In this document: piece after piece, positions 29,290-35,840 of the stretch
Layout of the letters: every line of letters begins with the position of its first letter
Position numbering within the stretch: position 1 is the first letter of the stretch
Virus record (IMG/VR): IMGVR_UViG_3300036791_001907
Location: 32,001 to 96,000 of that record
Reading direction: 5' to 3' (one strand)
DNA from: a virus
Length of the DNA: 64,000 nt
Program-made: the position numbers and the translations under genes
The notes under the pieces: generated by a model
The model's input: only the letters and a program-made list of their open reading frames with translations
What the model was told of the DNA's origin: nothing
Database searches by the model: none

Positions 29290-29689
29290 ACCGACGGCCA
29301 GCGGTATATCTGGCGGTGATGGCAGCGATGGGTATGTTGCGGCGGGCCGAGCTACGTCGTGGTAGGTCCGGCAGCTGCGGTTGGGTTCGTCATGGCGAGC
29401 CGAGCATGGGTATGCTCCGTCATGGCAGCCGAGGCATGGTTTGTTGGACCATGGCGAGATGAGCTTAGCCGAGCTTCGGCGAGGCAGCCGGGGTGTGGTT
29501 CGGCGGGCTGTGCGGCGCCACGCCAGGGTTGGGCAGCTCAGATCAGGTGTGGACAGCTCTGGCCGGCAGCGCCAGGTCATGGCAGCCGAGGATAGACCTG
29601 GCCAGCCACGCGGAGCCGTCGTGAGCCGGGGCAGCATTGGCTGGTCACGTCATGACACGGCCAGTCGAGCACGGCCATGTTATGTCAGC
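29290..29689 (+). ncRNA. Guide-RNA array 1: pseudoknot repeat plus 7 pentamer-coded units (VIPR-like)
   Basis: 33-nt repeat at 29290-29322, then units such as GGCA|GCTGC|GGTTG|GGTTC|GTCAT|GGCGA|GCCGA|GCATG|GGTAT|GCTCC|GTCAT|GGCA. Confidence 0.85.
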
Positions 29690-29940: not shown

Positions 29941-30207
29941 ATGATCTGTCCGGAATGCGGGCATTCCAACCCGGTGATCGCCGCCGAGTGTCTCAAGTGC
30001 CGGTGCCGGTTCCTGGAACACGGTTGTTTTTCCGAGCAGTATCAGCACCCGCTCGTCGGCAAGCGAATCCAGGTCAATACCAGGACCGGCTGCATGGCCG
30101 AAGGGGTCGTGGAGCGGGTGGTGTCTTCACGTTTCGGCCTGCTCGCCTGCCTGGAAGGCGAAAACGGCAGGGCCTGGGCCGTGAACCAATGCACGCCGGT
30201 CACCTGA
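29941..30207 (+). CDS. Small Zn-ribbon protein between arrays
   Basis: 'CPECG...CLKC'; RBS AGGAG. Confidence 0.6.
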   Translation: MICPECGHSNPVIAAECLKCRCRFLEHGCFSEQYQHPLVGKRIQVNTRTGCMAEGVVERVVSSRFGLLACLEGENGRAWAVNQCTPVT

Positions 30208-30219
30208 CCGGCGTCATGG

Positions 30220-30629
30220 ACCGATGGCCGGCGGTATATCCGGCGGTGGTGGCTAGCCCTGGCGACATCAGCAATGGTCGCGCGAGCACTGCCGTGGCGC
30301 GTTCAGGCAGTACAGGCGGGGTGATGCGGGCAACGGCAGGGCCGGGTCCGTCCGGCGATGTCATGCCACGGTATGGCAGCTCAGGTGAGTTCAGATCGGC
30401 CATGCGCGGGCTGGCTGCGGTGACCAGAGGTGGGTCGAGCCGTGGCGAGGCAGCGTAGCCATGGAAGGGTCGGGTCGGTTGAGCTGCGGCGAGCCCAGCT
30501 GACGCAGGGCTGGCCGCGGCAGCAAAGAACCGATGGCCAGCGGTATATCTGGCGGTGACGGGAAGCATCGGCAGCGACGGAATGGCAGGGCAAGTTGCGT
30601 CTTGTTCCGGCCAGCCAAGTCATGGCTGC
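30220..30629 (+). ncRNA. Guide-RNA arrays 2-3: two pseudoknot repeats, 5 units; the last unit matches the downstream RAMP gene
   Basis: Repeats at 30220-30252 and 30529-30561; GGCA-delimited pentamer tracts. Confidence 0.85.
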
Positions 30630-30754: not shown

Positions 30755-31666
30755 ATGCCAGCCAAGAAAGGTCCGGCCAAGGGGACAGTCCCGGTCAACA
30801 TCCCCCAGCCACAGATCCTCGACTTCGGGATCGGACTCATCGGCGTGACGCCGACGATCTCGAACGCATTCCCGCAGAAGATCCGTGAGAAGCTCGTGGC
30901 TGATCACATGCACATGCCTGAGGCCCTCATCCCCCACGAGGCCAAGGACCCGTGCGCCAACTTCAGCGCGTGCATCCACTACGTCAAGTCCAAGGACGGT
31001 GGGGTCAACTTCGCCATGCCCGGCTCCTCGTTCAAGGGGGCCATGGTCGCGGCGTGCCGGATGACCAACAAGAAGTTGGACATGGCCAGTGCCAAGCAGT
31101 TCTTCCAGGTGATCCCGTTCCGGGTCCAGATGTACGGCGACGAGCCGATCATGTGCGAGCACCGGGTCCGCAACGACAACGGCGGCGTCGACATCCGGCA
31201 CCGGGCCATGTACTGCCGTTGGTCGGTGATCCTGCCGATCCGCTACCACGCGGGGTCGATCTCCAAGGAGTCCCTGATCTACCTGGCGGAGCTGGCCGGC
31301 TTCGGCTGTGGCATCGGTGACTGGCGGATCGCGGCGCCCAAGAGCCCCAACGGGCAGATGGGCGCCTTCCGCGTGGCCCGCGAGGGCGAGATCGTCGGCC
31401 CGGCGTACTCCAAGTGGTGCGCCAAGAACCCGTTCGACTGGGACGAGTTCGAGCAGTACGGCATCGTCCCGCCCGCGCGGGTCGAGTACTACCGCAAGGC
31501 CGCCGAGATGGTTCGCGGCCTGCCGCCCGAGCAGCGGGGCACGCCCAAGAAGGGCAAGAGCCGGAAGGCTGTGCCCACCGCTGCGGCCGCCGCGGCGATC
31601 ATCAACGGCGTCCAGCCCGTCGACGGCCTTGAGCCGCCCGATGACGGCTACGTGCCGCAGCAGTAA
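30755..31666 (+). CDS. vipr: Stand-alone RAMP/Cas7-like RRM protein; putative RNA-guided effector (Vipr-like)
   Basis: 303 aa from ATG 30755 (RBS AAAGGA). First strand 'IGLIGVTP', RAMP helix motif 'MPGSSFKGAM', C-terminal G-rich loop 'AGFGCGIGDWR...GQMGAFRV'. No other cas genes in the window; flanked by the arrays. Confidence 0.8.
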   Translation: MPAKKGPAKGTVPVNIPQPQILDFGIGLIGVTPTISNAFPQKIREKLVADHMHMPEALIPHEAKDPCANFSACIHYVKSKDGGVNFAMPGSSFKGAMVAACRMTNKKLDMASAKQFFQVIPFRVQMYGDEPIMCEHRVRNDNGGVDIRHRAMYCRWSVILPIRYHAGSISKESLIYLAELAGFGCGIGDWRIAAPKSPNGQMGAFRVAREGEIVGPAYSKWCAKNPFDWDEFEQYGIVPPARVEYYRKAAEMVRGLPPEQRGTPKKGKSRKAVPTAAAAAAIINGVQPVDGLEPPDDGYVPQQ

Positions 31667-31741: not shown

Positions 31742-32275
31742 ATGCCATCGGGTGTCAAGAAGAAGTCATCAGCGCCGGCGCCGGCGCTCAAGTACGAGTT
31801 CCGGGCCTGCTTCCGGAGCCCGCTCGATCCCAACGTCGTCGCGGCGCGGCTCGAATGGCTCAGAACCAGACTGAGCCGGGACCCGGAGGGTCAGGACGTC
31901 CTGGAAGACGCCCGGCCCGTCGGCTCGCCGTTGCATGATCACTTCGACTGGAATGACTACGAGGCCGGCGAGAAGCATCGGCTCGGCCAGGCCACGGATC
32001 TGATCAACGCCATCCGGGTCACCGTTTACGTGGTGGCGAAGCCCAAGGGGCGGGTCAAGCAGCTGCTGCCGGCCTATGTCCGGCTGAAGAACCCCGCCGG
32101 TCGGCGCACCTTCGTCGCAGCGACCATCGCGACGGCAACGCCCCGGCGCGCAGAGACGCTGGCGGAGACCATCATTCGGTATGCACACATGGCGACTCGC
32201 GATCGCGCGCTCGGGCTCACCGAGCTGGATCCGCTGTTCGACGTGATTGATAAGTTGAAGAAGCGGTACGGCTGA
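31742..32275 (+). CDS. Accessory protein of the RAMP locus
   Basis: 177 aa; 'ARPVGSPLHDHFDWND.EAGEKHRL.QATDLINAI' is a phage hypothetical motif I recall next to such RAMP-like genes. Followed within 10 nt by a pseudoknot repeat. Confidence 0.7.
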   Translation: MPSGVKKKSSAPAPALKYEFRACFRSPLDPNVVAARLEWLRTRLSRDPEGQDVLEDARPVGSPLHDHFDWNDYEAGEKHRLGQATDLINAIRVTVYVVAKPKGRVKQLLPAYVRLKNPAGRRTFVAATIATATPRRAETLAETIIRYAHMATRDRALGLTELDPLFDVIDKLKKRYG

Positions 32276-32283
32276 TGCAGCAG

Positions 32284-33923
32284 ACCGACGGTCGGCGGTA
32301 TATCCGGTGGTGACGGGAAGGCGGCAGAGATCCGGCTTCGTTCGCTCCGGCGTGCGACGCTGGGGCCCGGCAGCCAAGGACCGGCGTGGCAAGCCGCGTT
32401 CTGGCTTGCAGCGTCTAGGTTCGGCCGCAGCGGAGGGCCAGGCCGGGGTAGTGTTCGGCTCCGCAGGTCGAGGCTTGTCCCGGTTCGGCAGCTCGGGTGC
32501 GTCGTGCTGCGAATAGGCATCGTGAGGCTGGCTTCGGCAGCGTCAGGCAGCGGCGGAGGGCCTTGTCCGGGTGTGGCATTCGGCGGCTTGGCGTGCCCAG
32601 GTGAGCCGAGGCCGTACAGGTTAGGCGGGATGCGCCCGGCACTGCAATGGCCTGCTCCGGCTGGCCGGGCAGTAAAGAACCGACGGCCAGCGGTATATCT
32701 GGCGGTGACGGCAGTTCAGGAGCGGATGGGACGGCCCAGGCAGGGCTTGTTACGGCCCGCCGGGACTCGTTTCGGCGCCGCCGTATTGGTCTGGCTTCAC
32801 ATGCCGTGGCGACGTGAGCCGCGGTCAGCACAGGAGCGGCAGCGATGGTTCGTCTAGTCTACACAAGGCAGGCCCAGGCAGCCGGAGGTATGCCCAGCAG
32901 GGCCATGGCCGTACAGGACAGCAGGGGTAGGTAAAGCACGGGCAAGCCGTGCCGGGTCCCGGCAGCGAAGCCGAGTTCCGGTGTGGTGCGCCGTGGTGGC
33001 GTCCGTCACGGCGGGCCATGTCGCGGCTAGTCAAGTCGCGGCAGCAAAAAACCTATGGCCACAGGTATATGTGGTGGTGATGGCAGGCAGGGCAAGCCCT
33101 GTCACGTCGCGGTGCGGCATGTCCCGGCAGCGTAGGCTTGGTCAGATACGCGAAGTCCTGGTACGCCGCGGCCGGCACAGGTTAGCTGCGGCCAGGCAGC
33201 ATAGGCTCGTCCCAGCAAAGGCAGGTCGCGACAGGGCTGGCCGCGGTTCGGCAGCATTGGCTGGGAAAGCCCAGCCCAGGTTCGCCGCGCCACGCAGGGC
33301 TTCGGCGGGGCGGGGCAGTCAAGGATCGGCATGGCGTGTCTAGCCACGGTCCGTCATGGCGAGTCGTGCTGCGGCAGCGGCGGAGAGCCGAGCCGTGGTG
33401 GCAACTGGTGGGCCAAGCTACGTTGTGGCGACGCCGGATAGGTATGGCATGCCCCGGACTGCCATGGCGAGTCATGGCGGGCCATGGCGAGCCGTGGCCG
33501 CGAAGGAGTGGCCGCCCGGCGTTCGTCCGGCGTTGGTTGGTCTAGGTAGGGACGCGTCAGCCGGGGCAGTCATGGTTTGGCGCGGCTTGCCTGGTCGTGC
33601 CACGGCAAGCGATGCCAGGGATGGGCAGCAAAAAACCCATGGTCACGGGTATATGTGACGGTGATGGTGCGGCAGCTCGGCCCTGCCATGATGGGGCATG
33701 TCGAGCCGCGGCCAGCAGCGCAATGGTAGCGCTGGTGTTCCCAAGCTTGGCCTGGGTAAGTCAAGCGCTGGCCAGCCGGGGCAGCGAAGGTGAGGCTAGA
33801 TCTATCGAGCCTAGCGCTGTCATGTGCTGGTGAGCCGGGGTGAGCCTCGGTACGGTATCGCCGCTCTGGCGGCGTTAGTCGTGACATCGAAAGCTGTGGT
33901 ATGCCGAGTCGAGGTCAGACAGC
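32284..33923 (+). ncRNA. Guide-RNA arrays 4-7: four pseudoknot repeats, about 24 units
   Basis: Repeats at 32284, 32679, 33051 and 33635; continuous 5-nt periodicity reset by 4-nt GGCA/GGCC/CGCC delimiters. Confidence 0.9.
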
Positions 33924-33936
33924 AGAGGAGGTGTGA

Positions 33937-34152
33937 ATGATCGGACCCAAGTGCGAGTGCCGAAAGCCGACCTTTCCGTCTGAAGACGAACAGTCCTGGC
34001 TGTGCATGAACCCGGAGTGTGCGGGCTTCCAGCAGGTCTACTGCGAGTTGACGCCGGCAGACCTGGCGCTCATCGCCAAGCTGAAGGCGCTGGCCAATGG
34101 CCACTGGCAGCGTGTTGCAAAAACCCGAAAACTCCGCGGTACCAGGAAGTGA
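33937..34152 (+). CDS. Small Zn-finger protein inserted in the array
   Basis: RBS GAGGAGG; 'CEC...CMNPEC'; lacks pentamer periodicity. Confidence 0.6.
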   Translation: MIGPKCECRKPTFPSEDEQSWLCMNPECAGFQQVYCELTPADLALIAKLKALANGHWQRVAKTRKLRGTRK

Positions 34153-34157
34153 TGAAC

Positions 34158-35835
34158 GGTTCGGCAGCCGCGGTGAGGTGCGACCGGGTTCGTCCAGCGA
34201 TGGCGGACCTTGGTGTGGCATCACAGCAGTAAACCTATGGCCACAGGTATAAGTGGCGGTGATGGAATGGCAGCATCGGACGGGCTCGGACGGGCCATGA
34301 CGGGCCGGGTTAGCTGTGCCGCGTCAAGGCAGTACTGGCTAGGTTTTTCAGGGCATGCTCTGGTGCGCCTGGTCACGGCCGTCTAGGTGAGGAGTCGCGT
34401 GCAGCGGCTTGCCACGGCCAGTTCTGTCGAGGCAAGCCGAGGCCGTCAAGGTGCGGCCAGGCAAGTAATGCAGGGATCGGGCTGGCTATGGTCCGGCCGC
34501 AATGGCAAGGTTAGTTGCGGCTGGTACCGGCGGGGCGAGCCCTGCTGTGGTATGGCCGTAACGGTAGTCCGCGGAGCGCCATGGACGGCCCCGCTCAGGC
34601 TGGCCAAGGTCGGCCGAGGCAGTCTTGCAAGGGATCGTCCAGCCTGGTTGTGCCATGGCCAGGCAGGGGAGCAGAGGTGTGTTCTGGCACCCTGTGATCT
34701 GGCCGGCCAAGTCACGGCAAGGCCGGGCAGCAGTAAACCCATGGTCGCGGGTATATGCGACGGTGATGGAAGGGCAGCCGTGGACAGCAGGGTTATGATG
34801 CGCTGCGCAAGGGCTGGTCCTGGCAGGCCAAGGATCGGCAGGAGAGCACAGGTCCGGTCTGCATAGTAGTGGCGAGACCTACCATGTCGAGCCGGGTTTC
34901 GGCAGCAATGCGAAGGTGAGCCTTGCCGGGGCGGCCGTAGCTGTGGCAGTGTAGTCGAGTCGTGGCAAGCCTAGTCCGGCATAGTTGGGCTCTGGTCCGG
35001 TCCGGCAGCAGAAGTGTGTCTTGGTCCGCCGCGTCGCGACGCGGTGGGATCCGGCAGTAATGGTGCGGCTAGTCATGGCGCCGCGAGCCGCGCTGTGTCA
35101 TGTCATGATCTGGCTAGGCCGGACAGCAAAAAACCGATGGCCAGCGGTATATCTGGTGGTGACGGGAAGCATCGGCAGCGACGGCAAGCCGTGGTGTGGT
35201 ATGCCCGGCTCCGCCAAGCTACGGCAGCAGTGGGCAGGCTGGGCAGGTTTTGCTCCGTCGTGTCGAGTGTTGGTAAGGCAGCCATGGTGTGGCCCGGCGC
35301 GTCATGTCGCGTCGTCCTTTGCGCCGGCATGGCGTGGCCGCTGTGGCAAGACACCCTTAGTCATGATGGGGCCGGGCGGGCACCTGTTTGCTGCGCCGAG
35401 TCGTGGCAGTGACGCAGTGGTGTGTTGTGCCCCGGCCTGCCCCGGCGAGTCCTGTCATCGTGGGCAGCGCTGAGGCAGCAAAAAACCCATGGCCACGGGT
35501 ATATGTGGCGGTGATGGACAGCCCCGCGCTGGCCGGCTTTGGTCAGCCATGCAGAGCTGCGGCAGCAGAGGTGAGGCGTGACCAGCACAGCCGGGGTACG
35601 GTTCGCTGTGCCCTGGTTAGGCAGGTGGGTCATGGTTCGCGATGGCGCGTTGAGCCTTGCCATGGTGAGGCAGCAATGGATCGGCGGGCTGTGGCACGGC
35701 AAGCCTGGGTCGGATCCGCTGCGGCAGCGGAGGTGCGGAACGCCATGGACCGGCAGGGTGGGCCAGGGTGGGCCGAGCCACGGCAGCACGGGTGTGCCGT
35801 GTCCGGCCTAGTCAAGGACGGATGAGCCGCGCACT
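34158..35835 (+). ncRNA. Guide-RNA arrays 8-11: four pseudoknot repeats, about 26 units
   Basis: Repeats at 34233, 34737, 35133 and 35485; same pentamer grammar; ends at a strong hairpin. Confidence 0.9.
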
Positions 35836-35840
35836 GTGGA

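Follow-up and report, generated by a model that had tools for sequence, protein, structure and literature searches.

Which gene is a phage guide RNA aimed at when its dinucleotides spell out the codons of the Walker A motif (motif I) of the SNF2 helicases? This question is raised by nucleotides 33377–33431 of the window, the 64,000-nt stretch of DNA analysed here, which corresponds to bases 32001–96000 of a 161,481-bp IMG/VR record labelled as a provirus. The relevant framework is VIPR, a gene-silencing system that resembles CRISPR and was first reported in 2026. In this system, phage-borne Vipr RAMP proteins act with vrRNAs built from 9–16 GGY/NN repeats. Successive NN pairs leave one base of the DNA unread, usually at the codon wobble position, and the vrRNAs of "staggered" arrays overlap by 1 nt (bioRxiv 10.64898/2026.04.26.720920, fig. 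S18 for the staggered arrays). At the structural level, each Vipr protomer sequesters a GGY triplet and uses its thumb to push aside a single base of the target, with an R-loop triplex as the result (10.64898/2026.04.26.720927).

The phage and its Vipr homologue

A plus-strand gene at 30755..31666 encodes a RAMP/Cas7-like effector of 303 aa that is a distant homologue of Vipr. The sole PDB sequence match of its product is 36pp_D, annotated as "SUSP1 Vipr protein" (phmmer E = 7e-4 over 45 residues, including the CG(I/V)GDWR loop). An AF2 model of the protein, which has moderate confidence (pLDDT 63), finds its best folds among the Csm3, Cas7 and Cmr4 RAMPs, with low TM-scores of 0.25–0.45. Downstream on the same strand lies a candidate vap (vipr-accessory) gene of 177 aa (31742..32275, from a GC3 gene call), for which a Pfam search returned no family match. 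Nine vipr homologues share 40–60% identity. In all three that were looked up, the order of the neighbouring genes is conserved and a gene of 178–189 aa occupies the candidate vap position, and arrays are found in both of the homologues whose DNA was readable. The guide sets are wholly different between this phage and these two syntenic relatives. A single-sequence search with the locus found no relatives.

The record is labelled as a provirus. Despite this label, it may come from a large phage that is free and not integrated, as suggested by a 227.7-kb contig that carries an identical vipr protein, a 211.7-kb contig that carries one of the relatives, and a gene layout in which nearly all genes lie on the same strand. 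The terminase large subunit (40.4–42.4 kb) is less than 30% identical to that of any cultured phage, and a blastn comparison of the array with cultured phages gave no match. Rfam and tRNA scans of the 64-kb window likewise returned nothing.

Array architecture

Between 32.3 and 35.8 kb, the sequence has a strong period of five (power of 4–5.6 vs a window median of 0.7, or 6–8x), a weak period of three, and no GC3-supported ORFs. A phase-tracking HMM (Viterbi parse) resolves 60 units over three tracts: a downstream staggered vrRNA array on the plus strand (32277..35837, ~48 parsed units) and two shorter upstream arrays (29319–29687 and 30250–30627). Each unit consists of n pentamers of the form G-N-Y plus NN followed by a 4-mer, for a length of 5n+4. 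The closing 4-mer is ggcA, ggcC or cgcC in nearly all 60 units and shifts the register by one base. Based on this period-5 GNY-NN array, the Vipr homologue, the modelled RAMP fold and the published code, the locus is assigned as a VIPR system in a large uncultured phage.

The units are grouped into blocks of 4–8, which are separated by a conserved element of ~41–46 nt. This element (repeat family D1) occurs five times in the stretch searched, its copies show compensatory changes in the stems, and the HMM parse places further copies upstream and downstream. The guide of interest is the fifth unit of an eight-unit block (33085..33627, plus strand) that has the element at both ends. The upstream copy (33044..33084, +) is an A-run followed by a hairpin/pseudoknot with covarying stems, and the copy 3′ of the block (33628..33673, +) is a candidate 3′ tail or pseudoknot cap. 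The element is present at block ends only, and none follows the guide at 33377–33431, a distribution that agrees with an array of the staggered form.

Two units depart from this regular layout. The units at 33130–33253 and 33674–33783 contain 24 and 21 pentamers, respectively, and lack the usual one-base register shift; the former also has internal ggcAG pentamers and may represent two or three guides fused in phase, or a guide that extends beyond the published 9–16 repeats. Two small plus-strand ORFs lie between guide blocks. The first, at 33937–34152, encodes 71 aa with Cys pairs behind a strong AGGAGG ribosome-binding site, and the second, at 29941–30207, encodes 88 aa with a weak match to Zn_Ribbon_1 (E = 0.006). 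Both products could be small zinc-ribbon proteins with an accessory role in the VIPR system.

A guide that decodes to SNF2 motif I

In the HMM phase parse, the guide comprises eleven G-N-Y plus NN pentamers on the plus strand (33377..33431). It is preceded by a GGCA junction (33373..33376), which ends the previous guide and, as the joint of a staggered array, offsets the pentamers by one base, and is closed by a terminal cgcC junction (33432..33435), with the next guide beginning at 33436. The pentamers read gcgGC ggaGA gccGA gccGT ggtGG caaCT ggtGG gccAA gctAC gttGT ggcGA and give the NN string GC GA GA GT GG CT GG AA AC GT GA; this string and its coordinates are exactly as claimed in an earlier sequence-only reading of this DNA. 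Within the triplets, G is the first base in 10 of 11 and a pyrimidine the third base in 8 of 11; caa departs from G-N-Y, and gcg and gga have no third-position pyrimidine. With a 1-nt skip, the NN pairs decode to A-[DE]-[DE]-V-G-L-G-[KN]-T-V-[DE]. The decoding rule assumed in that reading corresponds to the published 1-nt-skip code of VIPR (bioRxiv 10.64898/2026.04.26.720920).

The 22 specified bases of the guide were searched as an NNx pattern in viral, species-genome and metagenome collections. Exact matches number five in 2.9 million viral contigs and at least 120 in the species-genome collection; a further 70 exact matches in metagenomes come from a scan with a combined two-guide pattern, which had no match in the viral collection. 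Every one of the 195 exact matches listed lies in frame, on the coding strand, at the SNF2 motif I sequence (L/I)AD(D/E)VGLGKTVE. By comparison, about 0.07 chance matches are expected in 596 Gb over both strands (by arithmetic, assuming equal base frequencies), and the observed score was never reached by 500 shuffles of the NN order scored at the same loci. In an alignment of the 125 matching ORFs listed, A..VGLG.TVE is invariant, and DE.H and further helicase motifs lie downstream of it. PF00176 was found on one viral or genomic locus (L001), and NCBIfam SNF2 families on the rest of those tested. Since every listed exact match is motif I of an SNF2 gene, the earlier identification of this motif was right, and we regard the decode as secure.

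Self-targeting by this guide is ruled out. The 161-kb phage record holds no exact match to the guide (17/22 at best) and no SNF2 (PF00176) domain, which places the target outside the phage. Elsewhere in the arrays, the guide at 30577–30627 matches the phage's own vipr gene (30854–30882) at 18/20 positions; none of the other 59 guides has a notable near-match to the phage itself.

Matches in drmD of DISARM

DrmD of DISARM (NCBIfam NF038317) accounts for 28 of the 125 viral and genomic exact matches listed, and among these listed matches, 28 of the 29 ORFs with the motif context PRxNLLIADDVGLGKTVE fit NF038317 at E ≤ 1e-60. All seven ORFs that were scored singly exceed the curated cut-off of this family. 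One of the seven is on a viral contig, where drmD adjoins genes for a WYL regulator and a serine (prophage) integrase. The matching drmD opens an operon of drmD, a large methylase gene, drmA and drmB in the genomes of Sphingomonas zeae and Rubellimicrobium aerolatum, and drmA (NF038325) and drmB (NF038324) were identified as its neighbours in both species. Similarly, on metagenome contig L156, drmD comes first in a drmD-drmMI...drmA operon. The motif I site lies 0.4–0.9 kb into the first gene in the drmD operons examined.

The loci retrieved from metagenomes with the combined pattern are almost uniform, as 69 of the 70 belong to an alphaproteobacterial DrmD clade. The guide sequence is also the common form of the motif in homologues that were not chosen by motif: among the best 120 homologues of one DrmD, 73% have ADDVGLGKTVE and 23% have an Ile variant of motif I that is a single base away from the guide.

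Other guides of the array

A second guide fits the same family. This guide (32783..32841, +) decodes to [FL]L[FL][IM]V-DEAHH-A, corresponding to helicase motif II, and fits motif II of DrmD. Within the 125 loci, which were chosen by the first guide only, eight SNF2 ORFs match it in frame at motif II with scores of 18–19/22; seven of the eight are alphaproteobacterial DrmD, with the match 106 or 107 codons after motif I. Shuffles of the second guide gave 0.16 matches of at least 18, compared to the eight observed, and the maximum score of 19 has P = 0.008, a significance that is lost on correction for 59 guides. Among the 70 combined-pattern metagenome loci, nine match the second guide at 20/22. 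Neither the viral nor the metagenome collection contains an exact match to it. When 401 alphaproteobacterial genomes were searched with up to two mismatches, one match was obtained at 20/22, at the Walker B motif of a TniB-like AAA ATPase (L129, G178:C142:3878-3909; segment LLLIIDEAQHA, with a GIGKT Walker A motif). Guides with a motif II decode are thus ambiguous between ATPase families.

A possible third match to DrmD is weak. The guide at 33863..33918 (+) agrees at 17/22 positions with the conserved segment LGSVGQVIEDR, with p = 0.06 before multiple-test correction, which is not significant. Targeting of DISARM as a whole by the array was not found: in three genomes and the 70 metagenome loci, no guide reaches 80% on drmMI or drmA, or on drmB where the scanned stretch included it.

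Several further observations concern individual guides. The guide at 35673–35726 has a 17/20 match (ISGVSKWRPI) close to the beginning of an RmrA/CapP-like gene, at L156 3838–3867 (−) and at L201 9765–9794 (+). This gene sits in the DISARM operon that best fits both helicase guides, and the number of matches is within chance. The "methylase-like" guide at 33318–33372, which neighbours the motif I guide, has a YTP decode; it was considered as a guide against DrmMI and rejected, with no DrmMI match found, and it has no exact match in the viral collection. A similar decode is seen in the array of a relative (L136 11922–11985), where a guide reads V-Y-T-P-[DE]-[DE]-L-G-A-A-V-[DE], which resembles the YTP motif of N6-adenine methyltransferases.

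Proposed silencing of a defence helicase gene

The best explanation of the unit, to which we assign a probability of about 0.5, is that it is a VIPR guide that silences the gene of a defence SNF2 helicase, above all drmD of DISARM. In its favour are a known system and code, a securely decoded motif, the rarity of the exact site in sampled genomes, the presence of DrmD among the matches listed, and the fit of the second guide at 18–20/22. The sequence-only reading had proposed a helicase gene of a host defence island or mobile element as the target. With 28 of the 125 listed matches in DISARM DrmD, and seven DrmD_b-like and three DpdE proteins besides, such a target is plausible; it is not established, as most matches are other SNF2 genes and the second guide is not specific to DrmD.

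The steps of Vipr action proposed here follow the published mechanism, and the defence target is suggested by the exact matches. About eleven Vipr protomers would coat the 59-nt unit, hiding the GNY triplets and presenting the NN pairs. The resulting filament would anneal to the template strand across the motif I codons, skipping every wobble base, and formation of an R-loop triplex would block transcription of the motif-bearing gene. The positions read would be those that an invariant catalytic motif holds constant, so the target could not escape the guide through synonymous changes. The natural target would be the SNF2 helicase gene of a defence system, carried either by the host or by a co-resident mobile element, with drmD of class 1 DISARM in the alphaproteobacterial clade as the leading candidate. 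As the site lies within the first gene of the operons examined, a block in drmD would probably be polar on the downstream methylase gene and drmA, and on drmB as well in two genomes.

A wider proposal is offered more tentatively, and we consider it somewhat less than an even bet. The phage could use VIPR as an anti-defence weapon, with guides directed at the invariant codons for Walker A and Walker B in the SNF2 helicases of defence systems. A single guide might then silence DISARM, and possibly DrmD_b-type systems and Dpd, across many strains with no synonymous escape. Counting against a defence target, silencing of a defence operon may come too late in a lytic infection, when the proteins have already been made. 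The tail-less position of the guide within its block and the departure of caa from GNY were also counted against it.

Alternative targets

In an alternative that we consider unlikely, the guide works in the manner proposed but is naturally aimed at an SNF2 helicase gene without a defence role, carried by a rival phage, a satellite or another mobile element. This would agree with the natural VIPR targets described in the texts of the three preprints, target tables aside, which are mostly rival mobile elements, namely satellites, prophages, viral sequences and other VIPR loci (10.64898/2026.04.26.720920, 10.64898/2026.04.26.720927, 10.64898/2026.10.15.759431). It would also account for the five exact matches on IMG/VR viral contigs, and the guide that nearly matches the phage's own vipr suggests that rival-directed guides are present. 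However, the other 59 guides do not converge on these five viral loci above the level of shuffles, and one of the five is itself the DrmD locus beside the WYL regulator and prophage integrase.

The matches outside DrmD bear on a different possibility, which appears quite unlikely, that the guide targets a housekeeping or other non-defence SNF2 gene of the host (RapA-related or YwqA-like) and so alters host transcription or DNA metabolism. Approximately 70% of the exact matches listed are SNF2 genes without a defence assignment, either RapA-related or unclassified. At E ≤ 1e-100, 53 other listed matches comprise 13 RapA-related, seven DrmD_b-like and three DpdE proteins, the remainder being unclassified, so that at least 13 exact matches fit the RapA model at this threshold. 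Sorting the listed matches by motif context gives 19 RapA-like, 24 YwqA-like and 45 further unclassified SNF2 proteins. The matches listed are all SNF2 and extend clearly beyond rapA, so the outcome that the sequence-only reading had named as refuting its defence part did not occur. The sole RapA-like match that was scored singly (L027) scores 357 bits, short of the cut-off of 576, and is not an equivalog. Furthermore, RapA of Escherichia coli has Ile where the guide requires Val. The exact site was found in none of 150 other sampled alphaproteobacterial genomes, though SNF2 domains are near-universal (present in 14 of 14 control genomes). Finally, motif II of the RapA-like and YwqA-like families matches the second guide at no more than 17/22, with the exception of one locus (L100) at 18/22.

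It is very unlikely that the unit is no working guide at all, but a decayed or unprocessed stretch of array or a decoy, with a motif match that is left over from the past or lacks a target today: unit 33377–33435 lacks a tail of its own, has the off-consensus caa and the two triplets gcg and gga, is missing from the arrays of both readable relatives, and belongs to a staggered type of array for which no RNA sequencing is reported, the published data covering ribozyme-interspersed and single-vrRNA systems (10.64898/2026.04.26.720920), yet a perfect 22/22 match that is in frame with all skips at wobble positions would not survive drift, and the unit length (5n+4) and junctions are as regular as those of neighbouring units.

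Comparison with known systems

Silencing of a defence SNF2 helicase gene by a phage guide would extend what has been reported for VIPR. The system, its code and the use of guides against active-site codons have all been published before; a target in SNF2 or DISARM has not. The main texts of the VIPR preprints and one supplementary text, target tables aside, make no mention of SNF2, a helicase target or DISARM. If the guide does silence drmD, then phages also turn RNA-guided silencing on host immune genes, and the gapped code would address a protein motif rather than a single allele. The prediction, which involves a 32-bp site, a small effector gene and a 59-nt guide, is concrete enough for a direct test. 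Such a test would have some discriminating power, since the site is common in DrmD but seldom occurs in the genomes that were sampled.

The locus shares with published staggered VIPR systems a lone Vipr RAMP gene with an accessory gene, pentamer repeats (11 per guide here), wobble skips, abutting guides with a 1-nt register shift, and a conserved pseudoknot-like element. It differs from them in the size of the array, which is very large here at ~60 units in three tracts. Its Vipr protein is only distantly similar to that of SUSP1 (E = 7e-4 over 45 residues) and is longer, at 303 aa compared to 202. SUSP1 vrRNAs carry a tail (10.64898/2026.04.26.720920); the tail element here appears once per 4–8 guides, in contrast to once per guide in the published systems.

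The closest parallel for the target site is SUSP1 vrRNA4. It targets the codons for the active site in the recombinase of a satellite, a choice argued to block mutational escape (10.64898/2026.10.15.759431). Both footprints fall on catalytic-motif codons with a wobble skip, such that escape would require a non-synonymous change in the catalytic core. In contrast to the recombinase of a specific satellite, which was demonstrated experimentally as the target of vrRNA4, the target here is predicted, is the Walker A motif of the whole SNF2 superfamily, and possibly belongs to a host defence operon.

A broader comparison can be made with the CRISPR system of phage ICP1, a phage-carried RNA-guided system that is aimed at the Vibrio PLE, an element that limits phage growth. 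As in ICP1, the phage described here carries an RNA-guided system, and its guides would be turned against an element that restricts the growth of phages. CRISPR spacers are contiguous stretches that come from a single target, and the DNA is cut. In contrast, the guide at 33377–33431 is a gapped code read at protein-determining positions, and its expected outcome is silencing rather than cutting.
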